A DNA stretch of 39,197 bases. Source: a virus. Below are positions 2,360 through 39,197 of the stretch, one piece after another (positions within the stretch are counted from its first letter, which is position 1; every line of letters starts with the position of its first letter). The position numbers were made by a program, and so were the translations under genes. Under the pieces are notes generated by a model, which saw only the letters and a list, made by a program, of their open reading frames with translations, was not told the DNA's origin and did no database searches. The DNA lies in IMG/VR virus record IMGVR_UViG_3300027944_000097. One strand, written 5' to 3'.

Positions 2360-4185
2360 CCGCCTTCCAAACGCAGCTATCAGCCGACTGTGGAGGCGCC
2401 ACGAATTTGCGCCTACGGGGATCCCGCCGCGGCTCGAAAGCCGAAAGCAAAATCTTCAACCCCACCCCAGTTACCAGCGCGGTAAACACCCAATTCGGCT
2501 TGAATCTGACAGGCGGGATTCGTGTTGATCTATTCGCTGGCGGCGGCGGCGCAACGATGGGTCAGGAGATCGCTACCGGGCTACCAGTAGACATCGCTAT
2601 CAACCACGACCCTGACGCCATCAGCATGCACAAGCGCAACCATCCAAGCGCTGAGCATTACATCACCGATGTCTATGAAGTCTGTCCGCATGTCGCCACG
2701 CGAGGCCGGCCGGTTCTGCACCTGCATGCCAGCCCTGAATGCACCCACCACAGCTTGGCGGCTGGGGGCCAGCCACGCAGCACTACCAGCCGCTCCCTGT
2801 CTTGGGTAGTCATCAAATGGGCGGGCCAGGTTCGCCCCTTGATGATCACCATGGAGAACGTCATGCAGGTGCTCCAGTGGGGCCCGCTCATCGCCAAGCG
2901 CGACCCGAAAACAGGCCGCGTAGTCTGTCGAGACCTGCGCGTCGCCGATGTCGGCGAGCGCGTCCCAGTCCAGGACCAATATCTGATCCCCGACCCTAAG
3001 CGCAAGGGCCAGACATGGCGCCGGTTCGAGTCGATATTGCGCGGTATGGGCTACGACCTTCGCCACGGAAAACTGAAAGCGAGCGACTTCGGCGCCGGCA
3101 CACTTCGCGAACGCCTATACCTGGTAGCTCGATGCGACGGCAAACCACTCCAATGGCCCGAACCCTCCCACGCCAAGGCGCCGGGAAAGGGGCAAAAACC
3201 GCAGCTCACCGCTGCCAGCAGCATCGATTGGTCCATCCCCTGCCCGAGCATATTCTTGGACAAGGAAGAAGGCCGCGCCGCCGGCGTGCGGCGTCCACTG
3301 GTCAATAAGACAATGGAACGGCTCCGGAAAGGTGCGCAGCGTTACGTCATCGATCACGCAGACCCATTCATCGTCAGCGTCAACCACTCCGGCAGCGACG
3401 ACTCACGAGTTCACTCTGTTCACCAGCCAACGAAAACCATAACGGGCTCGCATGGGTTCGCGCTGGTGACGCCGCAGTTGGCGCCATTTATCACAGAGCA
3501 CGCAAACAGCAGCGTCCAGCGCAACATGGCCGGAGATTCGCCTCTCTCCACCATCTGCGCGAACGTCAAGGGTGGACACTTTGCATTGACCGTGGCTTAC
3601 CTGGCCCAACACAACGGTGGATTCAACACCACACCCGGGCACCACCCAGTCGAGCCCATGACTGCGATCACGACAACCGGCAGCCAACAGAATGTCGTGA
3701 CAGCTCACCTCTGCACGCTCCGCAAAAACTGCGTAGGACAACCAATGGATGGCCTGGTACCGACCATCACGGCCGGCGCCGAGCACCACGCGCTAGTCGA
3801 ATACACCCTCGCGCCTGAGTATCAAGCGGGCGCCTTGCGCGTGGCGGCATTCCTCATGGGCTACTACGGCACGGACAACATCTACGACGTCCGCGAGCCG
3901 GCCGCCACCATCACGACCCGGGACCGCCTGGCGCTAGTGACCGTAACCGTAAAAGGCACTCCATACGTGATCGTCGACATCGGTATGCGCATGCTCACTC
4001 CACGCGAGCTGTACCGCGCCCAAGGCTTTCCCGATAACTACGTCATCGATTCAGGACACGACGGACGCAAGTTCAGCAAACGCGCCCAGGTGCGAATGGT
4101 CGGCAACTCGGTCTCCCCGCAGCCGATGGCTGCGCTGATACGGGCCAACCTGGACGAGCCCCACGCCGAACGGAGGGCAGCATGA
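2356..4185 (+). CDS. DNA (cytosine-5)-methyltransferase, orphan, unusually long (609 aa)
   Basis: Motif I DLFAGGGGATMG. Catalytic motif HASPECTHHS (P-x-C type). Motif VI TMENV. C-terminal RELYRAQGFPDNY and GNSVSP (motifs IX/X region). A long insert of about 250 aa sits where the target-recognition domain is expected. No restriction endonuclease gene is adjacent. Confidence 0.85.
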   Translation: MTAFQTQLSADCGGATNLRLRGSRRGSKAESKIFNPTPVTSAVNTQFGLNLTGGIRVDLFAGGGGATMGQEIATGLPVDIAINHDPDAISMHKRNHPSAEHYITDVYEVCPHVATRGRPVLHLHASPECTHHSLAAGGQPRSTTSRSLSWVVIKWAGQVRPLMITMENVMQVLQWGPLIAKRDPKTGRVVCRDLRVADVGERVPVQDQYLIPDPKRKGQTWRRFESILRGMGYDLRHGKLKASDFGAGTLRERLYLVARCDGKPLQWPEPSHAKAPGKGQKPQLTAASSIDWSIPCPSIFLDKEEGRAAGVRRPLVNKTMERLRKGAQRYVIDHADPFIVSVNHSGSDDSRVHSVHQPTKTITGSHGFALVTPQLAPFITEHANSSVQRNMAGDSPLSTICANVKGGHFALTVAYLAQHNGGFNTTPGHHPVEPMTAITTTGSQQNVVTAHLCTLRKNCVGQPMDGLVPTITAGAEHHALVEYTLAPEYQAGALRVAAFLMGYYGTDNIYDVREPAATITTRDRLALVTVTVKGTPYVIVDIGMRMLTPRELYRAQGFPDNYVIDSGHDGRKFSKRAQVRMVGNSVSPQPMAALIRANLDEPHAERRAA

Positions 4186-4229
4186 TCAGATCGAGCGAAG
4201 CAGCAATCATCCCACTCGGAGCCCATACC

Positions 4230-4466
4230 ATGGAATTCCTCAGTGAAACCCTAACTGATGACGAGCTGGCGGCGATCACAGGCTACAAAACGCCCTCCTG
4301 CCAGCGGCAATGGCTTACGCGCAACGCCTGGCAGTTCGTCCTGACGGGCGCCCAGCGCCCCGTCGTCGGGCGTGTGTACGCCCGCCTGAAGCTCGCCGGA
4401 GTCAAGCCCACAGCTACCAACGCTGTGGCCGAAACCTGGACCCTCGATTTATCGCGTGTGGGATAG
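4230..4466 (+). CDS. DUF4224 domain protein (integrase-adjacent; possible excision/directionality helper)
   Basis: The pattern FLSETLTDDELAAITGYKTPSCQRQWLTRNAW.F......RPVV is typical of DUF4224. The start was moved to the ATG at 4230, which has an upstream GGAG. The gene sits immediately 5' of int. Confidence 0.6.
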   Translation: MEFLSETLTDDELAAITGYKTPSCQRQWLTRNAWQFVLTGAQRPVVGRVYARLKLAGVKPTATNAVAETWTLDLSRVG

Positions 4467-4468
4467 CA

Positions 4469-5536
4469 ATGCGCCCGAGAAAAACCTCTAACCGGGACCT
4501 GCCGCCCCGGATGATCCGCCGCGAGCGAGAAAGAAAGAACGGCACCGTCTGGTCCAGCTACTACTACAACGGTAGAACTGCCGAGGGGAAGCGGAAAGAG
4601 ATTCCCCTCGGCAGCGACCTGGACGAAGCAAAAGTTGAATGGGCACGTCTTGACCGCAAGGCGGTACCGAAGCCGGCCCACCTGATGGGCCGGCTGTTTG
4701 ATGACTACGAAACCAAAATCATGCCGGGCCTTACCAAGGGCACGCAGGATGACTATCGCAAGGGACTGAAGCAACTGCGCAACTCGTTCGAACAGGCCCC
4801 TGTCGATGCTATGACGCCACAGGTGATCGCTCAGTACCGTGACACCAGGACGGCGAAGGTGCGGGCCAACAGGGAGATAGCCCTGCTGTCCACAATTTTC
4901 ACCCACGCCAGGGAATGGGGGTTTACCGACAAGGCAAACCCATGCTCCCGGCTGCGCCGGAACAAAGAAATCCCACGGGACTTCTACGCCGGCGAAATCG
5001 TCTGGGATGCAGTGTATGCCCAGGCACCACCTGAACTGAAAGACGCCATGGACCTGGCCTACCTGACCGGCCAGCGCCCCGCTGACGTACTGAAGGCATC
5101 CGCTGCGGATATCAACAACGGCTTCTTGCTGGTGGGCCAAGGAAAGACCCAGAAGCGTTTGCGAATTCGCCTGCATGACGGGGCCACCGCATCCAGCCTG
5201 AGCACGTTTCTCGACGAACTCCGTGAACGCAGAGCCATGGCTGGAATTAGGACCTCCAGCCTGATCACCAACAAGAACGGCTTGCGCATGAGCTACGCGA
5301 TGTTACGCAACCGCTGGGATGAAGCGCGGGAGAAGGCAGCAGTTAAGGCTGCGACCGAGGGTGACACAACGTTGAGTGCTGCCATTCGTCAGTTTCAGTT
5401 CCGTGATATTCGTCCGAAAGCAGCGAGCGAAATCGAGGACTTAACCGACGCCAGCCGTCTGCTTGGGCACTCGACTGAAGAAATGACAAAGAGGGTTTAT
5501 CGCCGAGTCGGGGAGATCGTGAAGCCGACAAAGTAA
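4469..5536 (+). CDS. int: Tyrosine recombinase / phage integrase
   Basis: 355 aa from the ATG at 4469; the track ORF starts earlier at 4310. Contains LAYLTGQRPADVL (catalytic Arg box) and C-terminal LLGHSTEEMTKRVY (H-x-x-R...Y). Followed by a terminator and a tRNA-derived att core. Confidence 0.9.
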   Translation: MRPRKTSNRDLPPRMIRRERERKNGTVWSSYYYNGRTAEGKRKEIPLGSDLDEAKVEWARLDRKAVPKPAHLMGRLFDDYETKIMPGLTKGTQDDYRKGLKQLRNSFEQAPVDAMTPQVIAQYRDTRTAKVRANREIALLSTIFTHAREWGFTDKANPCSRLRRNKEIPRDFYAGEIVWDAVYAQAPPELKDAMDLAYLTGQRPADVLKASAADINNGFLLVGQGKTQKRLRIRLHDGATASSLSTFLDELRERRAMAGIRTSSLITNKNGLRMSYAMLRNRWDEAREKAAVKAATEGDTTLSAAIRQFQFRDIRPKAASEIEDLTDASRLLGHSTEEMTKRVYRRVGEIVKPTK

Positions 5537-5600
5537 CAGCAGGTTGCGGAACACCTCTCGAAAGTTGCGGAACACATCACCTAGAAACAAGCACAAAAAA

Positions 5601-5631
5601 GCCCCGTAACTCATTGAGCTACGGGGCTTTT
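5601..5631 (+). terminator. Rho-independent terminator after int (A-tract upstream, so possibly bidirectional)
   Basis: The stem gccccgta (5601-5608) pairs with tacggggc (5620-5627). It is followed by tttt and preceded by aaaaaa. Confidence 0.8.
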
Positions 5632-5636
5632 AATAG

Positions 5637-5686
5637 TGGAGGCCGAAGTCGGAATCGAACCGGCGTAGGTGGATTTGCAATCCATC
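5637..5686 (-). other. attP core: 3' portion of a tRNA-Cys(GCA) gene (anticodon arm to CCA), not a complete tRNA
   Basis: The reverse complement reads ..atgga-ttGCAaa-tccac-ctac-gccgg-ttcgatt-ccgac-ttcggcc-t-cca. This gives an anticodon loop with GCA, a T-arm with a TTCGATT loop, the acceptor 3' strand and CCA. No matching D-arm or 5' acceptor strand (ggccgaa) follows. The outermost anticodon-stem pair and one T-stem pair are mismatched. Confidence 0.8.
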
Positions 5687-5868
5687 AACTTTACTCTGTA
5701 TTTCAATAGGTTAGCACTGGAAGCGTTCCGCAAGCTACTGATTTTTAACACGCTACAGGCCGCGTCCCGCCTGGCTCGCCTTTTCAGTTGCGGAACGCTT
5801 TTTTGGATCCAGAAGTAGGCTGATAGCAGCTCGTCGCCTCACCCTCGCCTCAACCGGGCCGCCTGAAT

Positions 5869-5888
5869 TACTGTATATGCAAACAGTA
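5869..5888. promoter_or_regulatory. LexA (SOS) box
   Basis: TACTGTATATGCAAACAGTA is a perfect CTGT-N8-ACAG core. It matches 17 of 20 positions of the classical TACTGTATATATATACAGTA consensus. It ends 20 bp before the ATG at 5908, and a TATAAG -10-like hexamer (5887-5892) overlaps its right edge. Confidence 0.75.
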
Positions 5889-5907
5889 TAAGGCAACCGT
5901 CCCTATC

Positions 5908-6663
5908 ATGAACTTTGAACAGGCCAAGGCGCTGAGGATCCAGCAATGGCGCAATACGCTCGACGACCACGACTTTCGGATGCAGAACCCCGAGGCGTAT
6001 CGGTCATGTCTGCTTTCGGCAAGTGCAAGGCTTGCCGAAGAACGGCTGATTGATCGAATCGAACAGTTCGACATGGACGAGTTGGCGAATTCCGCATATT
6101 GGTTGGCCGTGGAGGAACTGCAATCCATAGCGTGCCTGTACCACAGCTCGTCGTATTACGACCTGGTGGCGCGGGACGGCTCGCCCAACCTTGGCACGAT
6201 TCAGCAGTCGACATTTACGGAGAGAAGCGAAGGCCCCCGCATTCACCCTTACGATGGGAAGGTTTACCGCCAAGGAGAGAAGCTGAAGCTTATCTACAGC
6301 ACATCACCAACCAACGGCGTGATTGAAGGGCTTGTTCTCACCCTGGATGACGGCCGCAAGTTTGACCTGGTCGAGACGGCCCAGATGATCAACGGAGTGA
6401 TCCACACCCCCATCGAAGACCCCGACGTCTATCGTTGGCTTGTCGACGCTATGCAAATCGCAGATGAAAATCGTAACCTGAAGTTGATGGTGAAAATACG
6501 ACCTGTGCTTCAGCTCGCGCGCTTCATAAAATGCATCGAATGCGCCGATCGTTTTGGGTTGAGGGATGAATGCGCAGCATGCGATGGCCTTGGGTTTATA
6601 CACAAACCGTGCAGACCGCGCGTCCCCATTGATGTAATACGCATTGATGAGGAAACAATCTAA
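5908..6663 (+). CDS. Cargo protein with a C-terminal C4 zinc finger (CIEC...CAACDGLG, DnaJ-like CxxCxGxG), function unknown
   Basis: 251-aa ORF directly downstream of the SOS box. The C-terminus reads FIKCIECADRFGLRDECAACDGLGFIHKPC. No enzymatic motif recognised. Confidence 0.6.
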   Translation: MNFEQAKALRIQQWRNTLDDHDFRMQNPEAYRSCLLSASARLAEERLIDRIEQFDMDELANSAYWLAVEELQSIACLYHSSSYYDLVARDGSPNLGTIQQSTFTERSEGPRIHPYDGKVYRQGEKLKLIYSTSPTNGVIEGLVLTLDDGRKFDLVETAQMINGVIHTPIEDPDVYRWLVDAMQIADENRNLKLMVKIRPVLQLARFIKCIECADRFGLRDECAACDGLGFIHKPCRPRVPIDVIRIDEETI

Positions 6664-6735
6664 CAAAGCCTCATTCAGGCGAGTAAATTAGGTAACATTT
6701 ATCCCTATTGGTATCACTTCTAAATCGAGGCAGCT

Positions 6736-7488
6736 ATGCGCATAAAACTTTCCTGCATGACGTGCGGTATGGAAGAGCTAGAGGCGGCGCGCCTGATAGA
6801 TCCGAGCATAGCTAGCATTAGCGTATCGCCTCTGGAAAGCACATCCTTTGAATTAAAGGAAGAAGGCCTCTACGTATTAGAATGCGAGAAGGGTCATATC
6901 ACCTACACCCAGCTGCAAGAGCAGAAATTCCAAGTTCTTTTTGAACTCGGGGCATACGCAATTGCAGACGGCTATTACAGAGACGCTGTCGCCTCATTTA
7001 CCGCAAGCCTAGAAAGATTCTATGAATTTTTCATCAAGGCCAACCTATACGAAAAGAAGTTCAACGATAAACAAATATCAGAATTTTGGAAACAGATATC
7101 CAATAGCTCTATAAAACAAGCAGGATCATTTTCACATGCATATTTCCACACTTTCGGGGAAAACCCTCCACAGCTAAGCAATCGCAAGACAGAGTTCAGA
7201 AACGAAGTCATTCACAAAGGAATCATCCCAACCCGCCAACAGGCCATAGACTATGGAGAAGTAATAATTGATTTAATATCACCAACCCTTCAAAAAGTAC
7301 AAGAAACAATGCCAGATGGTGTATGGCAAACCATTAGAGCTCATCTTGCCAAAACAGTACTTGCCAATCTCGACAAGAATATTATAACTAGAGGCACACC
7401 AATGTTGCTTAGCCTAACCCACGCCGACAAAACGACCAGGCCAAATTTACTTGGCGCGATTGCGACCTACACAGACCGAAACAAGTAA
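6736..7488 (+). CDS. Zinc-ribbon plus HEPN-like (RNxxxH motif) protein; candidate RNase toxin / Abi-type effector
   Basis: 250 aa with an RBS (gaggcagctATG). N-terminal CMTC...CEKGH (C7, C10, C50, H54). An all-helical middle region (YYRDAVASFTASLERFYEFFIK) is followed by FRNEVIHKG at nt 7198-7215. That is the Rx4H HEPN signature with the typical Asn after Arg. This is the most AT-rich gene in the window. Confidence 0.5.
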   Translation: MRIKLSCMTCGMEELEAARLIDPSIASISVSPLESTSFELKEEGLYVLECEKGHITYTQLQEQKFQVLFELGAYAIADGYYRDAVASFTASLERFYEFFIKANLYEKKFNDKQISEFWKQISNSSIKQAGSFSHAYFHTFGENPPQLSNRKTEFRNEVIHKGIIPTRQQAIDYGEVIIDLISPTLQKVQETMPDGVWQTIRAHLAKTVLANLDKNIITRGTPMLLSLTHADKTTRPNLLGAIATYTDRNK

Positions 7489-7491
7489 AAT

Positions 7492-8691
7492 TTACCCAAC
7501 CACTCCTCCAACATCCATAATCTTAAGCGAGGCCGAAAATTTCCGAGTAGTAACAATCGACGGATCCTGAAGAGCAATAACTAGGCGCTGGCTACCCACC
7601 ACTACAAATGAAGGAGAAGAAAAATTACCGCCACTGACCAGCTCGGTGACATCTCCATTCAATAGATCTTTAATTACTATTCCACCAGTAGCCGGGGAGT
7701 ATACAGCGCTCCGCCCTGCATCAGCTAACGCCGCCCCGCCTGCGTAGGTGTGCACAGCCACGTCAGCAATGCTTATGTTGGAAAGGCAATAGCCATTCTC
7801 GACATCGACCACTACCACCCTGCTCAATCCAAGCCTCCCGCCTTCACGCATTTCCGTATACGAAACCGCTACTGTTTTTTTTGAGATCCATGCCACTTCG
7901 AATGGAACTGTATCTACCAAGCTCGCACTACCCAACTCAATGGGGAATTCCGTTTTGGTCTTAAACGCATCGGAGGTTACTACAACAGTCAGACCAAGAT
8001 GGCGCTTTTCAGCAGCTGAGTAGATGGCATAAGCCATTGCGCATCGGCCAGTCGAAGATAGGGATAACGGCGTTGAATAAGGAAAAGTCCCAGGACCGCG
8101 CCCCGCAATTTGTATAGCGTCACTCCAGCTATCTCCACCATCATCAGATACCCTAGCGACAACCTTGCGCCATTCGCCGGATGAGTACCTGCTAGCATTC
8201 TCTTGAAGCGTGTGCATCAACACTATTTTTCCGTCGTGGAGGGCGGACAACGATGCGTATGTTGATCGACCACCGTCAATTACACGAGAGGCGGCCCATT
8301 TACCTACCAACCCGGGCTGAGCAGTCCGTGCAAAATATAGGGGCGATGAATGATTGCTAAAACAAGCAATCACATGACCAGCATATTTTCCTGACGGCAC
8401 ACGCACCAGTGAGGGCGATCCATGGTCGCTAGCGCCTTCAAATTTATGCAACTTCACTGTTCTACCGACCAGCAGTTGATTATTTATTTCAGACACCAAT
8501 ACGTCGCCGGAGGAATTTATATAACCAATACAGAACCCCCCATTGACTTCAGCAACAGCCGGCCGGTTGTACCACAGGCTATACGCGTTATTAATGATAA
8601 GTGGCCGAGGCGGCATATAACGTTGAACGAGAGGGATAGAAGTAAAAGCCGCGATAATCCCTGTCGAAATCAGAAAACCCCTACGATTCAT
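7492..8691 (-). CDS. Tat-signal-bearing BNR/Asp-box (sialidase-fold-like) exported protein
   Basis: The N-terminus MNRRGFLISTGIIAAFTS fits a twin-arginine signal (RRxFL plus a hydrophobic stretch). There is one clear Asp-box, SDDGGDSW. The protein is beta-rich. ATG at 8691 is preferred over the track's TTG at 8694. The gene lies at the distal end of the late/lysis transcription unit. Confidence 0.45.
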   Translation of the reverse strand: MNRRGFLISTGIIAAFTSIPLVQRYMPPRPLIINNAYSLWYNRPAVAEVNGGFCIGYINSSGDVLVSEINNQLLVGRTVKLHKFEGASDHGSPSLVRVPSGKYAGHVIACFSNHSSPLYFARTAQPGLVGKWAASRVIDGGRSTYASLSALHDGKIVLMHTLQENASRYSSGEWRKVVARVSDDGGDSWSDAIQIAGRGPGTFPYSTPLSLSSTGRCAMAYAIYSAAEKRHLGLTVVVTSDAFKTKTEFPIELGSASLVDTVPFEVAWISKKTVAVSYTEMREGGRLGLSRVVVVDVENGYCLSNISIADVAVHTYAGGAALADAGRSAVYSPATGGIVIKDLLNGDVTELVSGGNFSSPSFVVVGSQRLVIALQDPSIVTTRKFSASLKIMDVGGVVG

Positions 8692-8762
8692 CAACTCTAC
8701 TCGCCCACTTGAAAATCTGGATTATGACACCTCCCGCACCGCCAACCACAGCTTTGCTTGGG

Positions 8763-9272
8763 TCATTTTCCTCCAATCACTGCATGGACATAGGCTTGGC
8801 AGGCCTTTAGAGCTATCAGCCCCCGATCGCCGGCGTCGGTGATGGCGACAATTCTTTGAGCATGCGCTGGGTCAAGTTGGGCTCGACGGGCTCCATGAAC
8901 CACGCCGCCGGCGCCGGCGGTGGTAGACACTGGGCTGCAACTGGCTGAATCCTCGAGGAGGACTGACAGCCGGACATCAGCAGTAGCGAGGCGATCACGT
9001 AGGCGATCCTGATCACGTTGGGCATCGGTAAGGGCTCGGTAGTGGGTTTGGTCGCTGGCCGTCAGTCGCTGTTCCAGGGCCAGTCGTTTGGCCTGCTCGG
9101 CCTTGGCCTGGTTGGCGGCCGCGCTGCTGATACTGTCCAGGTCGGTTCGGTGCAGGTTGGCCTGCTCCGCCAAACGCACGCCGTAGCGCCAGTCCTGGAC
9201 CTTCCATGTCGCGCTCATGGTGACGACAACGGCTAGGCCCGCTATCAAAAGCTTCACGGTTCCGGGCGTCAT
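8763..9272 (-). CDS. Rz-like i-spanin
   Basis: N-terminal transmembrane segment (LLIAGLAVVVTMSA) followed by a long charged coiled coil. The start overlaps the endolysin stop (ATGA). It contains an embedded lipoprotein ORF in another frame. Confidence 0.8.
   Translation of the reverse strand: MTPGTVKLLIAGLAVVVTMSATWKVQDWRYGVRLAEQANLHRTDLDSISSAAANQAKAEQAKRLALEQRLTASDQTHYRALTDAQRDQDRLRDRLATADVRLSVLLEDSASCSPVSTTAGAGGVVHGARRAQLDPAHAQRIVAITDAGDRGLIALKACQAYVHAVIGGK
8816..9025 (-). CDS. Rz1-like o-spanin (lipoprotein) embedded within Rz
   Basis: 69 aa with a signal peptide and lipobox (ASLLLMSGC). The mature part is proline-rich (CLPPPAPAAW). The ORF lies entirely inside the Rz ORF in a different frame, which is the classic embedded spanin architecture. 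Confidence 0.75.
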   Translation of the reverse strand: MPNVIRIAYVIASLLLMSGCQSSSRIQPVAAQCLPPPAPAAWFMEPVEPNLTQRMLKELSPSPTPAIGG

Positions 9273-9802
9273 GCCAGCACCTCAAGCGCCCTAGCGTATA
9301 GCTTTCGCCGATCTTCAGCGCCGTTCTGGCCGCCGTTGATCCTATGGGTGATCTTGTCGAACTCACCGGTGTCCGCCAAGCTGTTCAACCCGCGAGTTGA
9401 CCAGAACCACGCCGCCGACTTCGCGGCCCATTCTGGCTGCTCCAGCAGCTCAGGCCGGCCCAGTAGATTCAGGCCCAGGGCCTCGCCACACTCGGCGTAG
9501 TTGGCCCGCCCGGTGATTTGGATCAGGCCTCGCCCAAGGAACTTGAAGCCGTCACCCGCCAAGGTATTGCCGAGGTCTGCCCGGCCTTCGTAACGACTCT
9601 GGGCTGGCGTGGGCCCCCAAAGTTCGCGGGCGTAGCGCAACTGACCGGACTCATGACCAACCTGGGCGATGAAGGCGGCCACACGCTTGAGGCCAATGAT
9701 CTGGTAATGGCCCATAGATGTGTTGAGGGCAGGCGCAAAAACACGGGCTTTAACACCGGCGTTCGGGAGGATGAACAAAAGCTGTTGCACGGTGACAGGC
9801 AT
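9269..9802 (-). CDS. Endolysin, glycoside hydrolase family 19 (chitinase-like lysozyme)
   Basis: The segment AAFIAQVGHESGQLRYARELWG...YEGRADLGNT..GDG.KF.GRGLIQITGRANY is the GH19 core. The ATG at 9802 has ggagaaacaagt upstream; the track start is 9820. Confidence 0.85.
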   Translation of the reverse strand: MPVTVQQLLFILPNAGVKARVFAPALNTSMGHYQIIGLKRVAAFIAQVGHESGQLRYARELWGPTPAQSRYEGRADLGNTLAGDGFKFLGRGLIQITGRANYAECGEALGLNLLGRPELLEQPEWAAKSAAWFWSTRGLNSLADTGEFDKITHRINGGQNGAEDRRKLYARALEVLA

Positions 9803-9817
9803 ACTTGTTTCTCCGGA

Positions 9818-9840
9818 CAAAAAAAATCCGCTTTAGCGGA
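9818..9840 (-). terminator. Intrinsic terminator inside the late operon, just upstream of the endolysin RBS
   Basis: The minus strand reads tccgc-taaa-gcgga followed by tttttttt (plus strand aaaaaaaatccgctttagcgga). Confidence 0.65.
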
Positions 9841-33044: not shown

Positions 33045-35741
33045 TCATGCTGCAGCTGCCTTGATGTGGTCCCAGTTGTCGACGTTCCAGCCCGCCAGGC
33101 GCGCAGCGGCCCGCCAAGCAACCACCGCCTTGCCCAGATCGGCCGAACTGAGTGATGGGGGCTGGGAAGCCTGCTCATCGCGAGGAAAGAAGAACGCCCC
33201 AAACTTGCGATTACTGCCATCGGTCCAGGGTATGGCGCGAGTCTTGTCTACCTCCGAACTGATGAACAATGAAAACTTCGTCTGGCTCATCACATGCTCT
33301 TTGTTGCGATGGCACCACTCCAGGAACATCGCGTAGAGGTCTGTCGACAAACAGGCGCCCCACATATCGCGTCCCAGCTCGCCGTATTGCCATAGGAACA
33401 GGAACGTTTGCCAACTCGCCCGACTCAGTGCCACCAACCGCTCTCGCGCATCGGTGCTCGGCGGTCGTGTTCGCTGATCGAAGTCGCCCAGGTCAATGGA
33501 CAACAACCACGCATACAGCGCCGCAACACCACCGTTCGCCAGCTCTCTGCCGATAGCCTTCTGACGGTCTACCGGTAGCGTCTCCATGGGCCACAGCACC
33601 AGCATCCGGCGGTCGCTCGGGGCAATCGGCCACGGCATAATCTCGTTGCTCAGGAACACGGCGTTCATGTGGTTGGCTTCCTCCCAACCGTTGATGAACT
33701 TCGACTCCATGCGTACCGTCTTGCCCGTGACCAGATGCTTGATCTTCCCCACCTGGTTGTAACGCTGGTCACGACTCACGACCTCTTCGAACACCGCCCA
33801 AAGCTTGCGGCTTTGCCAGGCGTTGAAGTTGCTTTCCAGCTGCGTCTGCCCAACCGTGGCCGCGTACTGGCCGTAGAGCATCCCGAAGGCGTCAGCGAAC
33901 AACAGGCTTTTGCCGGATCCTTCCATAGTCGAATGAGCCAGCACTGCCGTGTCCATTTTTGCGCCCAGGTGCTGCAACGGGTACGCCAACCACCGTATCA
34001 ACCAAGCGCTGGATGACTGATCGTGGTTGCACAGGAAAGAAATCAGCCACCGCAGGTTTTCGCAGGCGCCGTCATCGCGGGCGGGCTCCATGGGGAGCCC
34101 GTCAAAGGTATTGATATAGACGTTGGGATCCTTGGTCATCGTCGGGTCAAATACGATGTTCTCGACGTCGACCACCCGCCGCTCCGGGCTGTTCAACCAC
34201 ATGCCGTACATGTCGCCCAAGGCCATTTTGACTGCGCCCTCAGCCACGCGCCGTTTCTTCTCGCGGTCCCAAACATCTTTGGTGCCATCGATGTAGACGT
34301 ACCGCTCAATGGGTTCAAGGTTCAGCGCACCGCCCTTCTTACCCGCCATCTTGCGGGCCTGCTCGATCTCCTTAACCTTGTCATCCGAGATCAGCTTTTT
34401 GAGCGTGTCATCCATCCACTGTTTCGCCAGCGGCTTGCCAACCCTCGCCTCAAACGCGGTTTTCTTCATCACCCGCGCCTTGTCGAGGTCCCACACGTGT
34501 GTGGTGCCTTCAACAAGCACATAACGCCTGAGCACTTGCTCATACGTCAGCTCTTCCCCCGCACCCCCGTCAGCAGCTGGAGCGGCCTCACCGGGAGCCG
34601 AGCCGGAGTCCTGCCCGCCATCATTCGAAGATGGGGCTGGGGGAAGATCGCCTGGGTCTGGCCGCGCCGAGTGCTGCATGCCCAGCATACGCGCCGCGTC
34701 CTTCACCGCTTTCGATTGGTCCCCGTCGTGCTCGAGCAAACAGAACACCTCGAACGCATCGTTCTGGTGACCGTTTGCCAACGGGTCTGCCGCATGATGC
34801 GAATACACCTTGCCGTCGTCGCTGACTGTGACGCCGGGCAGGCCCGTGCTGCTCTGGGGGTACAACCACTTGGCGCCGCGTTTGATGTAACCATGAGCGC
34901 GCAGCAGCTCTTCAACATGGTGAGACCGATTGAACTCATCAATGACGGAAGGGGGTTTGCCAGCGGCCGGTGGCGGCCGTTTTATGACTTTCGCTGGTGG
35001 TCGCTTTGGCTTTGGTGCCCACGGGCACGCCGCCTCGGCATCCCGCTTGAAGATGTCCCAGTTCTGCCAGATCGCCAACAGATCGGCAGGCAATACGGGC
35101 AAGCCCTCCGTAGCGTTCGGCGGAGTCCGCCACGCGTACGGCTTGCCGGTTCCAGGATGGATAGACGGTGGCAGAACATCCTGCACCAGGCCGGCGCGCA
35201 GTTCGAGCACGGTAAAGCGCTTGTACTGCTCCGACTCGACCTTGGCCGCCGCCTCCCCTTCAACGTCACCCGCCGCTTTTGCGGCCCTGGCCTTCGCCGT
35301 TAACGCTTTGTAGATTGTCCCGTCCGGGTCGTTTTCGTTCGGCCAGGCAAGCGAATGCCGGTTCAGCTCAACGCCTTCTGGTACTTGAAACAAGACACGA
35401 AACCGCGCCGGGTTACCGACGACAGTTGGGAACACCAACGCCATTGCATCCAGGTCCAAGCCCAACAGCTCGTACAGAACGTGTCTGGTCCATTGGACGT
35501 CATCAACATCCAACGAACAGATGCGGCTCGGCCCCAGGACGACGCCGAGGTTGTGGTGAGGGTGTGTTTGCCAGAAAGCTTCAGCAGTGTCCGCCGAAGT
35601 TAAGTAACCACCCGGCTTGTTCCAGCCCATGCCCTTCGGCGCTTTTTCACCCGGCTCAATCGAGACGAGAGCCAGGCCAAAGGTTTCAATGTATCGACGC
35701 GCCCACGCCGCCGTGGGCGCTGTGTTTATCGATTCACTCAT
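33045..35741 (-). CDS. Bifunctional primase-polymerase (AEP/prim-pol N-terminal domain) fused to a D5/P4-type SF3 helicase
   Basis: 898 aa. The N-terminus has VSIEPGEKAPKG.GWNK...HNLGVVLG...SLDVDD (prim-pol DxD). The C-terminal domain has Walker A STMEGSGKSLL and downstream SF3-like motifs. Confidence 0.8.
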   Translation of the reverse strand: MSESINTAPTAAWARRYIETFGLALVSIEPGEKAPKGMGWNKPGGYLTSADTAEAFWQTHPHHNLGVVLGPSRICSLDVDDVQWTRHVLYELLGLDLDAMALVFPTVVGNPARFRVLFQVPEGVELNRHSLAWPNENDPDGTIYKALTAKARAAKAAGDVEGEAAAKVESEQYKRFTVLELRAGLVQDVLPPSIHPGTGKPYAWRTPPNATEGLPVLPADLLAIWQNWDIFKRDAEAACPWAPKPKRPPAKVIKRPPPAAGKPPSVIDEFNRSHHVEELLRAHGYIKRGAKWLYPQSSTGLPGVTVSDDGKVYSHHAADPLANGHQNDAFEVFCLLEHDGDQSKAVKDAARMLGMQHSARPDPGDLPPAPSSNDGGQDSGSAPGEAAPAADGGAGEELTYEQVLRRYVLVEGTTHVWDLDKARVMKKTAFEARVGKPLAKQWMDDTLKKLISDDKVKEIEQARKMAGKKGGALNLEPIERYVYIDGTKDVWDREKKRRVAEGAVKMALGDMYGMWLNSPERRVVDVENIVFDPTMTKDPNVYINTFDGLPMEPARDDGACENLRWLISFLCNHDQSSSAWLIRWLAYPLQHLGAKMDTAVLAHSTMEGSGKSLLFADAFGMLYGQYAATVGQTQLESNFNAWQSRKLWAVFEEVVSRDQRYNQVGKIKHLVTGKTVRMESKFINGWEEANHMNAVFLSNEIMPWPIAPSDRRMLVLWPMETLPVDRQKAIGRELANGGVAALYAWLLSIDLGDFDQRTRPPSTDARERLVALSRASWQTFLFLWQYGELGRDMWGACLSTDLYAMFLEWCHRNKEHVMSQTKFSLFISSEVDKTRAIPWTDGSNRKFGAFFFPRDEQASQPPSLSSADLGKAVVAWRAAARLAGWNVDNWDHIKAAAA

Positions 35742-35944
35742 CTACGCCGCTCCCGGAACCCCTGGCAACTGACACAGGTTTCGCAACCCTCGATAGTCTG
35801 CTGACGAAGTAACGGGATGGGTTCATCGCAGTCTTCGCAAAACTGCGCGCTGACACGGGACCGGGGAACGTGTCGATTCCGATGCAAAGCGACGTCAAGA
35901 AGGTACTGGGCCTGGTCATTGGCGCGATCGATGTCATCAGCCAT
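35738..35944 (-). CDS. TraR/DksA-family C4 zinc-finger protein
   Basis: From the ATG at 35944, the sequence is MADDIDRANDQAQYLLDVAL...CEDCDEPIP..R......CETCVSCQ. Confidence 0.7.
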   Translation of the reverse strand: MADDIDRANDQAQYLLDVALHRNRHVPRSRVSAQFCEDCDEPIPLLRQQTIEGCETCVSCQGFRERRR

Positions 35945-36425
35945 TTTCGCGATCCTCCATCGCCTGGCGCGCACCAGCCATAATGCCCAGCACCGCACGA
36001 ATCACATCGATGCCATGCTTTTCCAGCAGCGCGACTTCGTGGGGCTCCCACACGTTGTCGGCGGCACCTTCGTGCATGCTCGATACAAACTCACCGGTTT
36101 CATGCAACAAGCGCCCTACCGACTTCAACGCCTCTTTAGTGGGCGCTGCGGGCTCTGGCTTGTACCAGACCATCCCCGCAGGCCTCATCAGCGCATCCAG
36201 CAGCGCGGGATTACAGGTCAGCCGAATGACCTCTTCCAGTTCATCCGGATCGAGCCAGCGGCGTTCTTCATCGTGTTTGAGTTTCTTCTGAAGGGTGTCG
36301 TAATCGATCACCATGTCCAGGGCCAGAGCCGTGACGCCACCCTTGTAATCGTGGCCGGCCCGATACAGCGCTTTGCGAAGCGAAAGAACCGGCCCAAAGG
36401 CCGGTGAATGGTTCGAAGTGCTCAT
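35937..36425 (-). CDS. Phage regulatory protein CII (CP76/186-CII-like)
   Basis: 162 aa. The segment DYDTLQKKLKHDEERRWLDPDELEEVIRLTCNPALLDAL parallels the 186 CII segment TLRNKLNPEQPHQFTPPELWLLTDLTEDSTLVDGF, from memory. The gene lies second in the PR-like operon after cro. Confidence 0.5.
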   Translation of the reverse strand: MSTSNHSPAFGPVLSLRKALYRAGHDYKGGVTALALDMVIDYDTLQKKLKHDEERRWLDPDELEEVIRLTCNPALLDALMRPAGMVWYKPEPAAPTKEALKSVGRLLHETGEFVSSMHEGAADNVWEPHEVALLEKHGIDVIRAVLGIMAGARQAMEDRENG

Positions 36426-36563: not shown

Positions 36564-36773
36564 TTACGCTGCCATTTGTTTTCGGCGGCTACCTACCGGA
36601 CGGATCTCAACGCCAGATAGCTTCCCATCGGCGTCTTTGATCACGCGGATATCTCGACCACTGAGGATCATTTGAGAAACCGCACTTTGGGTCACGCCCA
36701 GGAGCGCCGCCATTTCGAGCTGACTCCTATCCTTTGCGAACTCACGCAAAGGCACTCCAAATTCAACTGTCAT
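36564..36773 (-). CDS. cro: Cro-like HTH repressor
   Basis: 69 aa from the ATG at 36773, which has AGGA 8 nt upstream. The HTH is QLEMAALLGVTQSAVSQMILSG. The gene is divergent from the CI-like gene. Confidence 0.75.
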   Translation of the reverse strand: MTVEFGVPLREFAKDRSQLEMAALLGVTQSAVSQMILSGRDIRVIKDADGKLSGVEIRPVGSRRKQMAA

Positions 36774-36804
36774 TCTCAATTCCTCGGAACGGATGCAGAG
36801 CCAA

Positions 36805-36833: not shown

Positions 36834-36889
36834 GAAAAAACAACCGCTACTCTTTGGGCAGCATAAGTGATGCTTATAGAATTGCTGCC

Positions 36890-37612
36890 ATGACAAAAAA
36901 GCCGACCTACATCGCCGAAGAAGCCGCCCGCCTCAAAGGCATTTACAAAACTCGCAAATCGGAAGACCCGAGCCTGAATCAGGACAAGGTCGCCGAAGCA
37001 TGCGGCTGGTCAGGCCAAAGTGCCGTAAGTCAATACATGACAGGGAAGATCGCCCTGAACCTACCTGCGTTATTAAGCCTGAGTCGCGCCCTTCGTTTCG
37101 CGCCCGAGAGCGTCAGCCCTCGCCTCGCGGAAACGATGGCTCTGGCAAATAATGTTTCGGCATCGAACGCCCCGTCACAAGGGGACGTCTACCGAAACAC
37201 CACGGAGATGGGATCGGCGGGGAGGCTGTTACCTGTGATTGGATATATGAAAGCGGCTGCTTACCATGCAGGACGCGGGGACTTTGAGCCCGGTGACGCT
37301 CAAGAATGGGTCGAAGCTGGGGGGCCAGCAGGACCACGCGCGTTTATCCTACGGGTCGAAGGCAGAAGCATGGAACCGGACTTCATGCCAGGGGACAAGG
37401 TAGTAATCGACCCTGATATGGTCTGGAAATCTGGTGACTTCGTAGTTGCAAAACGTCAAAACGACAAGGCCGTCACCCTTCGACAGCTCACCGAGGAAGG
37501 GGGCGATATGTTTCTTCATGCAACCAACCCGAACTGGCCCGACCGGGTCATTAAGATGAATGACGAATGGGTCGTATACGGTAGAGCACGACGGAAAATC
37601 GTCGATCTGTGA
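36890..37612 (+). CDS. cI: CI-like repressor: XRE-type HTH plus S24 (LexA-like) autopeptidase domain
   Basis: HTH: QDKVAEACGWSGQSAVSQYMTGK. Ala-Gly candidate cleavage site: YHAGRG. S24 serine: VEGRSMEPDF. Lysine: FVVAKRQ. ATG at 36890 is preferred over the track's TTG at 36854. Confidence 0.85.
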   Translation: MTKKPTYIAEEAARLKGIYKTRKSEDPSLNQDKVAEACGWSGQSAVSQYMTGKIALNLPALLSLSRALRFAPESVSPRLAETMALANNVSASNAPSQGDVYRNTTEMGSAGRLLPVIGYMKAAAYHAGRGDFEPGDAQEWVEAGGPAGPRAFILRVEGRSMEPDFMPGDKVVIDPDMVWKSGDFVVAKRQNDKAVTLRQLTEEGGDMFLHATNPNWPDRVIKMNDEWVVYGRARRKIVDL

Positions 37613-38544: not shown

Positions 38545-38820
38545 ATGAACCGCACCCTGGATCAAACCGCCGCCCTATTGGGCCTTAAGCCCCGCGCCTT
38601 TCGTACCAGGCTCCGGGAACTCGGCGTTCTGAACTCTTCCGGTGACCTGGCCAGCGCGCACCGTGAACGCGGCTATCTCTTCTCGGACCCGCGTGTGCGC
38701 TGGAACCCCACCACCGGCAAGCCCGTGCACTACGCCGTCGTGATGGTGAAGGAAGCGGGCGTCGCGTGGATTGCCAAGAAGCTGGATATCACCATCACCA
38801 AAAAGGACGCTGCAGCATGA
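38545..38820 (+). CDS. KilA-C / antirepressor C-terminal-like DNA-binding protein
   Basis: The sequence AALLGLKPRAFRTRLRELGVL.......A......GYLF...........G.......VMVKEAGVAWIAKKL follows the KilAC pattern as I recall it. Confidence 0.5.
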   Translation: MNRTLDQTAALLGLKPRAFRTRLRELGVLNSSGDLASAHRERGYLFSDPRVRWNPTTGKPVHYAVVMVKEAGVAWIAKKLDITITKKDAAA

Positions 38821-39191
38821 AACCCAACGCCATCAATTCCGCTGTAGGCGCCCTGAAGCTGGTGCCCATGTACCTCAATCACCCGACGGTGATCAGCCGA
38901 GCCACGCTTATCGGCGCCTCTGCCGAAGCTGTTCAATTGCTGGAGGCCTTGCCCTGCGTCTCTGTTGAACTGGCGGAAGTGTTCCGCTGTGTCGACGCGG
39001 TGATCGGTGATGGCCATGTTGCCTACGTTACCCCCGTCAACTGCCCGGAATACCCCTATGGCGCCGTCGTTTCAGACGCCAAGGGCAACGTCCTGGCAGC
39101 GGCCAAGGGCAAGAGCAAAGAAGGTCTCGCCGAACTGATCCGCCTCAAGCTGGTGCCCCTGATGGAGGGGCATGGGGAGGATTCCGCGTGA
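38817..39191 (+). CDS. Hypothetical early protein (spans the circular junction repeat)
   Basis: 124 aa from the ATG at 38817, which overlaps the upstream stop (gcagcATGA). Its 3' end lies in the 123-bp terminal redundancy, and its stop (39189-39191) overlaps the GTG start of the PrtN-like gene, which begins at 39188 in the end copy of the repeat (114 in the start copy), by 4 nt (GTGA). Confidence 0.5.
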   Translation: MKPNAINSAVGALKLVPMYLNHPTVISRATLIGASAEAVQLLEALPCVSVELAEVFRCVDAVIGDGHVAYVTPVNCPEYPYGAVVSDAKGNVLAAAKGKSKEGLAELIRLKLVPLMEGHGEDSA

Positions 39192-39197
39192 GCACCA
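39075..39197 (+). repeat. Terminal redundancy, copy 2 (identical to 1-123)
   Basis: Same 123 nt as the window start. Consistent with a circular assembly overlap or a circularly permuted unit of 39,074 bp. Confidence 0.95.

Follow-up and report, generated by a model that had tools for sequence, protein, structure and literature searches.

What does a temperate phage gain from two adjacent genes placed behind a single SOS box, at a short distance from its attachment site? The question is raised by positions 5869-7488 of the IMG/VR virus record IMGVR_UViG_3300027944_000097, a DNA stretch of 39,197 bp, which was analysed at its full length and is called the window below. Two open reading frames (ORFs) follow each other there on the + strand: ORF1 (5908-6663, 251 amino acids) and ORF2 (6736-7488, 250 amino acids). 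A sequence-only reading made earlier took them for a two-gene toxin or defence cassette. Situated at that end of a Pseudomonas temperate phage which is next to the phage attachment site (attP), the locus is in our view rather probably not such a cassette but an accessory operon repressed by LexA (an "SOS slot"), whose cargo is ORF2, a predicted RNase of the HEPN superfamily.

The SOS (LexA) box TACTGTATATGCAAACAGTA occupies positions 5869-5888 of the + strand. It has the CTGT-N8-ACAG core and agrees with the consensus TACTGTATATATATACAGTA at 17 of 20 positions, as the sequence-only reading had stated. The core is the sole copy in the 39,197 bp on both strands (0.34 copies are expected by chance), the box is the only site in the window with at most three mismatches to the consensus, and none of 100 dinucleotide-preserving shuffles gave an equivalent match. 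Besides the consensus match, LexA control, also proposed earlier, is supported by a strong phylogenetic footprint. The comparison covered 32 loci, including 27 fetched genomic loci, the GenBank phages Meadow and LPPA36, and the metagenomic loci L035 and L038. All 32 have a CTG-N10-CAG box with TA flanks at the same place; in the related loci 15-24 nucleotides (nt), and in L030 34 nt, separate the end of the box from the first start codon. The 20-mer carries 1.56 bits of information per position, compared with 0.5-0.7 for the flanks, each locus has a distinct 60-mer around the box, and the intergenic surroundings diverge. The box is thus kept in position despite an ORF1 protein identity of 23-77%. 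Since the related prophages differ both in their integration sites (tRNA-Ser, tRNA-Leu, tRNA-Cys, or none nearby) and in their repressors, the shared factor that recognises the box is most simply the host LexA. We infer its binding to 5869-5888 from established SOS biology.

It could be objected that the box is a chance palindrome, or that it is bound by the phage repressor or a PrtR-like protein, so that the two ORFs are not under SOS regulation. Such an objection can appeal to the presumptive character of LexA binding and to a simple consensus scan, which called no sigma-70 promoter at the site. We consider it very improbable, given that no shuffle matches the box and that the core is kept in every one of the 32 loci whatever the integration site and repressor, which fits a host factor. 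The promoter itself was described earlier on the basis of TATAAG (5887-5892, + strand). The overlap of this hexamer with the 3' end of the box is read directly from the sequence and stands; its role as a -10 element is presumed, and the full sigma-70 promoter was not called in the scan.

The region between the box and the ATG deserves a separate remark. No Shine-Dalgarno sequence precedes the ATG of ORF1 in 5893-5907 or in the equivalent region of L004-L030, and a conserved TTGTACAGCGAA stands between the box and the ATG in many loci. The nearness of the box to the ATG, the lack of a Shine-Dalgarno sequence and the conserved TTGTACAGCGAA suggest either that the mRNA begins with a very short leader or with none at all, or that a further regulatory element is present. 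Two loci carry the labels of other genera. In L031 (approximately 5965-6140), a chromosome labelled Leclercia tamurae, the SOS box ATACTGTAGATCCTGACAGAT is followed by a frameshifted ORF1 remnant with only about the first 27 codons intact. L016, a contig labelled Gordonia sp., contains a complete module of the Pseudomonas type (box, ORF1, SRAP). These labels may reflect mislabelling, contamination or transfer.

Behind the box the order of genes is half constant and half variable. ORF1 is the constant first gene of the slot and, judging from its relatives, belongs to an uncharacterised family of Pseudomonas prophages: its 125-130 homologues all come from Pseudomonas and are all annotated as "hypothetical". 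Neighbour clustering showed that in 20 of the 27 genomes it is followed on the same strand by a SRAP/YedK gene; this usual partner has about 230 amino acids, starts with MCGRLSQY and matches PF02586 with E 5e-47. The same position holds degenerate SRAP fragments in L005 and behind the closest relative of ORF1 (77% identity), a GAF-domain protein and a 140-amino-acid ORF in phage LPPA36, and small ORFs in phage Meadow, while some loci have nothing on the same strand after ORF1. ORF2 of the window has no match to PF02586; it starts with MRIKLS and is devoid of the N-terminal Cys2. The slot unit is therefore described as a terminator or prophage edge, then the SOS box, ORF1 and a variable cargo, here ORF2. 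The cargo position appears to turn over quickly. We also noted frameshifted or truncated SRAP genes in L010, L021, L005 and L040; in L030 (P. guariconensis) two SRAP genes (3950-4660 and 6708-7373) flank the ORF1 homologue.

The composition of ORF2 differs from that of its surroundings. Its GC content is 43% and its GC content at third codon positions (GC3) is 0.45, against a GC3 of 0.64 in ORF1 and 0.68 in the integrase gene (int); the window as a whole has about 59% GC. Because of this low GC and GC3 relative to ORF1 we take ORF2 for foreign cargo. The left edge of the low-GC foreign block is the spacer between the two ORFs (6664-6735, + strand, 72 bp, 40% GC). The earlier statements about this gap proved correct: GAGG (6727-6730), a putative ribosome-binding site, lies five nt before the ATG of ORF2, and a simple scan of the + strand found no terminator-like or promoter-like site between the ORFs. 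A single transcript for ORF1 and ORF2 is plausible on these grounds.

Could the two genes nevertheless form a dedicated pair, either toxin/antitoxin-like or a two-component defence cassette, in which ORF1 senses or neutralises and ORF2 kills? They are adjacent, on one strand and behind one SOS box. Moreover, in L035 a box is followed by a 121-amino-acid ORF resembling helix-turn-helix (HTH) proteins, by a distant counterpart of ORF1 (32% identity, E 1.5e-36) and, 12 nt further, by a likewise diverged ORF2-like gene (51% identity), so that the ORF1-ORF2 order is met again. This pairing is equally explained by a single capture into the same slot with subsequent divergence. ORF1 and ORF2 occur together only in the window and in L035; the consistent co-occurrence expected of a type II toxin-antitoxin pair was not found. 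As described above, ORF1 usually goes with SRAP and elsewhere with unrelated cargo. L038 has the same tRNA-Cys attachment fragment as the window, then a box, a 61-amino-acid ORF and an ORF2 relative, and no ORF1. Finally, in about 133 loci the gene of the ORF2 family stands alone, with neither ORF1 nor a conserved neighbour. The two-gene cassette of the sequence-only reading is not borne out by these contexts, and we find a dedicated pair quite unlikely.

The contexts of the ORF2 family bear directly on the slot. The family has 146 detected members, from Gammaproteobacteria, Flavobacterium and SPbeta-like phages of Bacillus. The approximately 133 other loci comprise 49 IMG/VR contigs, 80 metagenomic loci and four loci inspected singly. 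In the 49 contigs there is no ORF1 and no SOS box within 1.5 kb of the ORF2-family gene, and the largest cluster of adjacent genes spans three loci, i.e., no neighbour is conserved. The 80 metagenomic loci have no ORF1 and no functional SOS box by the ORF2-family gene; an SOS-like match at -542 in L113 was dismissed as chance, as it falls within a coding region of an AT-rich genome. Neither ORF1 nor an SOS box was found in the four single contexts: a P. shahriarae prophage, where the ORF2 relative is an opposite-strand insert between terminase and holin; a Klebsiella P4-like satellite, where it lies at the cargo end; a Pseudoalteromonas chromosome; and SPbetaL4.

Relatives with more than 50% identity to ORF2 are only two, P0122 and P0123, and both lie behind SOS boxes. 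The scan of viral contigs gave no further close relatives, and the metagenome scan gave none above 47% identity. The linkage to an SOS box is accordingly 3/3 in the subclade of ORF2 against 0/~133 elsewhere, and the three members have three different upstream arrangements. This contrast, combined with the varied upstream genes, argues against a dedicated ORF1/ORF2 pair and for selection that keeps this HEPN lineage under LexA. The subclade is also devoid of the near-invariant E126-R127, where SERQ is replaced by SIKQ, SVMQ and SLKQ; the ER dipeptide is kept in 72 of 80 further ORF2 relatives.

That ORF2 consists of a zinc ribbon and a HEPN domain with an intact Rx4H motif was proposed from the sequence, and the proposal stood up well. 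ORF2 belongs to phrog_19381 (E 1e-58). Its N-terminal zinc ribbon C7xxC10...C50xxxH54 is encoded by nt 6754-6897, and the helical HEPN domain occupies approximately residues 64-210 (nt 6925-7365). The domain includes F-R155-N-E-V-I-H160-K-G with the predicted catalytic R155-N-x3-H160 (nt 7198-7215). The residues C50, H54, D78, Y80, R82, E93, R94, E97, S125, G130, R155, N156, H160 and G162 are invariant in 45 homologues. The AlphaFold model (predicted local distance difference test score, pLDDT, 92.9; predicted template modelling score, pTM, 0.88) consists of a small beta/zinc module followed by a helical bundle. Here Rx4H closes the helix 149-161, with the loop 162-166 after it, and the invariant E93 and E97 are in the helix 81-106.

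The top Foldseek match of the model in PDB is 2q00 (probability 0.99, target-normalised template modelling score 0.69, but E 0.17), with AbiV lower; 2q00 figures among the HEPN-T structures in the HEPN survey (PMC3710099). At the family level, the PADLOC Csx1/Csm6 profiles (CARF plus HEPN) are matched over their HEPN part by 15 of the 45 members (best E 7.5e-9), and UniRef gives one member of the family the name "Apea-like HEPN domain-containing". The Foldseek search of the model against BFVD gave nothing, and the family profile matched only designed helical repeats among the PDB sequences. Searches of Pfam and NCBIfam gave nothing significant for either ORF. We consider the membership of ORF2 in the HEPN superfamily well supported; RNase activity is predicted from this membership.

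The proposed course of events is as follows. In the lysogen the host LexA would occupy the box over the promoter and start region, and ORF1 and ORF2 would be silent. DNA damage would produce RecA*, LexA would cleave itself, and both genes would be expressed from one bicistronic message. ORF1 would be the resident zinc-knuckle protein of the slot. The second position would accept exchangeable cargo, ancestrally the SRAP/YedK abasic-site protein, whose place in this phage would have been taken by a zinc-ribbon-HEPN endoribonuclease, complete in itself and acquired horizontally. Since ORF2 has no antitoxin-like partner, we presume that LexA repression serves as its safety catch in the lysogen. 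Upon SOS, ORF2 would be made at prophage induction and would cleave RNA, most likely so as to arrest growth, to kill the cell abortively or to act against competitors. The pay-off could consist in abortive or competitor killing, in SOS-coupled growth arrest, or in aid to the lytic programme of the phage.

Several points weigh against this explanation. LexA binding, transcription and RNase activity are what we infer in it, and the lack of a called sigma-70 promoter at the box counts here as well. The match of ORF2 of the window to the HEPN part of Csx1/Csm6 is marginal (E 0.011-0.015), and no Pfam HEPN model reaches the threshold for ORF2. The SOS-gated subclade has three known members, two of which are on contigs of 1.4-2.4 kb, and the loss of E126-R127 in it could mean an altered or lost activity. 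An RNase made during the induction of the phage itself could harm the phage, which makes the role of ORF2 uncertain.

A rival proposal is that ORF2 is no toxin or defence effector but serves the lytic programme (host mRNA or tRNA shut-off, nucleotide scavenging or counter-defence) and that LexA only times it to the onset of induction. The family is common in phages, namely in the 49 IMG/VR contigs and in SPbeta-like phages; in 37 of the 49 contigs the gene is on the same strand as the upstream phage gene, often within phage operons and not as a moron on the opposite strand. The usual cargo, SRAP, plausibly helps replication in a cell with damaged DNA (PMC3765255). Against this, relatives of ORF2 are found at accessory or defence positions, such as the terminase-holin insert of P. 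shahriarae and the P4-like satellite of Klebsiella, and of the solitary HEPN proteins of mobile elements that have been characterised, the majority are effectors of Abi or defence (PMC3710099). We regard a lytic role as a minor possibility.

What, then, is the role of ORF1? It belongs to phrog_19595 (PHROG E 7e-68). The search with a profile of diverse ORF1 sequences returned only hypothetical proteins of Pseudomonas and no annotated distant relative, and PADLOC gave no match for ORF1. Its C-terminus has the arrangement C209-IE-C212-x9-C222-AA-C225-D-G-L-G (nt 6532-6597); all four cysteines as well as G227, G229 and F230 are invariant across 35 homologues. In the model (pLDDT 81.5) the chain starts with a helical bundle, continues with a beta-rich domain and a helical hairpin, and closes with the C4 knuckle; Foldseek found no credible fold match for the model in PDB. 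The finger had been assigned to the DnaJ type. The C4 arrangement stands; the assignment to this type is weaker, as in profile comparison the knuckle matches the DnaJ Cys-rich domain 1exk at a borderline level (E 0.031) and anti-TRAP more weakly still (E 0.23), and the second motif alone is CxxCxGxG, the first being CxxCxD.

It is tempting to suppose that ORF1 is a LexA-controlled antirepressor or inducer similar to Tum of phage 186 or GfoA/GftA of Gifsy, and that ORF2 is hitch-hiking cargo. The layout is indeed of the Gifsy/186 type: the LexA box stands on an operon outside the immunity region with a terminator before it. The succession of terminator, box, ORF1 and the SOS-associated SRAP parallels that in Gifsy, 186 and N15 (PMC3121763). 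The weak resemblance of the knuckle to the DnaJ Cys-rich domain and to anti-TRAP would suit a protein-binding anti-regulator.

The CI repressor is of importance here. The sequence-only reading found an antirepressor odd, since CI carries an S24 self-cleavage domain. The S24 domain is present and the nucleophile Ser172 is kept; the catalytic Lys is replaced by Arg210, and Ala134-Ala135 stands at the Ala-Gly cleavage site. The sequences aligned with it, namely lambda CI, LexA and the repressors of three Pseudomonas phages, have the canonical residues in both places. The repressor of Meadow, the closest relative of CI among those compared and characterised (41% identity), has Ala-Gly and Lys. From these substitutions, CI of the window probably self-cleaves poorly or not at all. 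The contrast of Arg and Ala-Ala with the canonical Meadow repressor implies that the phage probably needs another route of induction, which favours an antirepressor.

The comparison with other phages points the other way. LPPA36 and Meadow carry the box and ORF1 alongside canonical repressors (Ala-Gly, Ser, Lys), and a general tie of ORF1 to non-cleavable repressors is rejected on this ground. Neither ORF1 nor its relatives show antirepressor homology in Pfam, PHROG or NCBIfam, and no similarity to Tum, GfoA, AntC or the Ant/KilA families is detectable. With about 240 amino acids, ORF1 proteins are far larger than the known SOS antirepressors. Furthermore, an ORF of 91 amino acids downstream of CI (38545-38820, + strand) shows a weak match to the KilAC/ANT antirepressor domain (E 0.0012) and is itself an alternative candidate for inactivation of the repressor. 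In view of LPPA36 and Meadow, the antirepressor role of ORF1 is not established, and we hold it to be doubtful; it can coexist with the explanation preferred here for ORF2. As to the record used for Meadow (PQ533659.1, L172), a "complete genome" of 78.8 kb, it seems from its part 18000-60000 to represent a lambdoid phage into which a Mu-like transposable phage is inserted. The insert follows a head-stabilisation gene and has its own repressor, transposase and Mu-type morphogenesis genes.

The two lines of thought may be joined. In the joint version ORF1 is the inducer or antirepressor of the attP-adjacent LexA slot, LexA is the sole "antitoxin" of the HEPN RNase, and the loss of E126-R127 marks transcriptional-only control. 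We put this forward tentatively, as a combination with a small chance of being right in all its parts. If it is true, ORF1, a new family with a new fold, lets a phage with a non-self-cleaving CI still respond to DNA damage, and the loss of E126-R127 is a switch from post-translational to purely transcriptional control of a nuclease.

The remaining features of the window describe the setting of the slot. The ends of the window overlap exactly by 123 bp (1-123 is identical to 39075-39197); we conclude that the phage genome is complete and circular, with a length of about 39.07 kb. With the circle closed, the + strand operon that starts at CI runs on past coordinate 1 as far as int. A Pseudomonas is almost certainly the host, because every homologue of ORF1 comes from this genus. 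A near-identity DNA search of 5500-7800 against GenBank phages found no match, and Rfam found no RNA family anywhere in the window. The lambda-like immunity region includes the CI-like repressor with HTH and Peptidase_S24 domains (36854-37612, + strand), a Cro-like gene (36564-36779, - strand), CII (35937-36425, - strand) and a primase gene (33045-35741, - strand). The late and lysis genes, including Rz (8763-9272) and the GH19 endolysin (9269-9820), are on the - strand.

The gene int (4310-5536) encodes a tyrosine integrase and is directly followed by a GC-rich terminator-like hairpin (5597-5631) with a 16-pair stem. The hairpin was scored on the - strand; it is palindromic and has TTTTAA after it on the + strand. 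To judge from its position and structure, it separates the int operon from the putative SOS promoter. Next comes the attP core (5638-5685, - strand), in which the last 48 nt (3' side) of tRNA-Cys(GCA), anticodon arm through CCA, recur without change; it was aligned with the complete tRNA-Cys gene of L017 and with the copy of this fragment at the start of L038. ARAGORN found no complete tRNA in the window. A 3' fragment of tRNA-Cys without the complete tRNA indicates that 5638-5685 is attP of a free or circularised temperate phage.

From attP to the SOS locus there are about 190 bp, and the locus would be outermost in the integrated prophage. The closest integrated relative has the end of a host hydrolase gene 148 bp upstream of ORF1; in several related loci tRNA genes are found 0.5-1.6 kb upstream. 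The phage lysis cassette follows the slot on the opposite strand in the related loci.

In the window, ORF2 is followed by a convergent gene of 400 amino acids (7492-8694, - strand), the two stop codons being only 3 bp apart. The gene shares the low-GC block of ORF2 (GC3 0.45), starts with a twin-arginine (Tat) signal MNRRGFLIS..., and has a weak BNR/sialidase-like match; no related locus, including L035 and L038, contains a homologue. The idea of a tail fibre linked to ORF2 was rejected in view of the Tat signal, the weak BNR match and its absence from related loci. The gene is probably a second, independent foreign cargo, and its functional link to ORF2 is not established. Two terminator-like hairpins of the - strand lie inside the coding region of ORF2 (7360-7377 and 6930-6950), the first of them about 115 nt downstream of the codon at which the 400-amino-acid gene stops. 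They could end late-operon transcription running antisense into ORF2.

We believe that these observations are of interest in several respects. LexA-controlled prophage operons, SOS-induced RNase toxins, SRAP genes of prophages and solitary HEPN effectors are already known. What is new is the conserved box-ORF1 slot of Pseudomonas prophages, the ORF1 family, and the partner-less HEPN lineage gated by SOS. The slot is a widely conserved, presumably LexA-regulated module of Pseudomonas prophages, including those of P. aeruginosa, and the SOS regulon of a lysogen would therefore reach beyond the chromosomal core set. For the ORF1 family (phrog_19595) it provides a first handle: the regulation can now be predicted, the function cannot. 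The HEPN lineage appears to have exchanged a solitary, constitutive arrangement for SOS gating, with the host LexA as its candidate safety catch. A phage with both an altered CI and the slot offers a compact system for the relay of DNA damage to induction and to RNA-targeting effectors.

The closest parallel in layout is the induction of Gifsy, 186 and N15, where LexA-controlled operons are outside the immunity region, have terminators before them and include the SOS gene dinI (PMC3121763). As in the dinI-antirepressor-irsA operons of Gifsy-1/2/3, tum of 186 and antC of N15, the slot has a LexA box, a terminator before it and a small operon outside the immunity region; a phage-specific gene is likewise joined to an SOS-associated gene of host type, dinI there and SRAP here. 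The differences are that ORF1 has no similarity to Tum, GfoA or AntC, that the operon is attP-proximal, and that its second position is exchangeable. The presence of SRAP/YedK (PF02586) in prophages and its association with SOS were noted by Aravind and colleagues (PMC3765255). Their account of SRAP neighbourhoods describes no pairing of ORF1 with SRAP under a LexA box in Pseudomonas prophages. We regard SRAP/YedK as having originally filled the place where ORF2, itself no SRAP, now stands.

A related logic is known for DdaA of Moraxellaceae, a WYL-type protein through which DNA damage raises the expression of defence genes (PMC12392091). In both cases DNA damage would signal imminent phage outbreaks, and nucleic-acid-targeting genes go up. 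DdaA is an activator acting on chromosomal restriction-modification and CRISPR genes, whereas LexA repression of a phage-borne HEPN gene is proposed here, with defence as a candidate role.

At the level of the protein, ORF2 resembles lactococcal AbiD/F/J/U2/V, the prophage ABC-HEPN proteins and Csm6/Csx1 (PMC3710099) in its helical HEPN domain, where an invariant Rx4H closes a helix. It also resembles the solitary HEPN effectors of mobile elements, as its family is found as a single gene in prophages and satellites. Its N-terminal sensor differs, being a zinc ribbon with a beta module and not CARF, ABC or the AbiJ N-terminal domain. The RNA-repair system of Gifsy-1 (PMC9879122) was considered as a precedent for an SOS-linked prophage HEPN protein and set aside: deletion of its HEPN-containing gene had no effect on the phenotype. 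Unlike solitary HEPN effectors that are constitutive and triggered post-translationally, the subclade of ORF2 is predicted to be gated transcriptionally by SOS.

This gating brings ORF2 near to the RNase toxins induced by SOS, which include dinJ-yafQ, yafNO and symE/symR in E. coli and higBA in Caulobacter. Each of these toxins has a cognate antitoxin, a protein or an antisense RNA, and they adopt RelE, YafO or SymE folds. The likeness consists in a predicted RNA-cleaving effector placed under LexA and coupled to DNA damage. ORF2 differs in being a HEPN protein, in being phage-borne and in having no detectable antitoxin, so that LexA is apparently its only brake.

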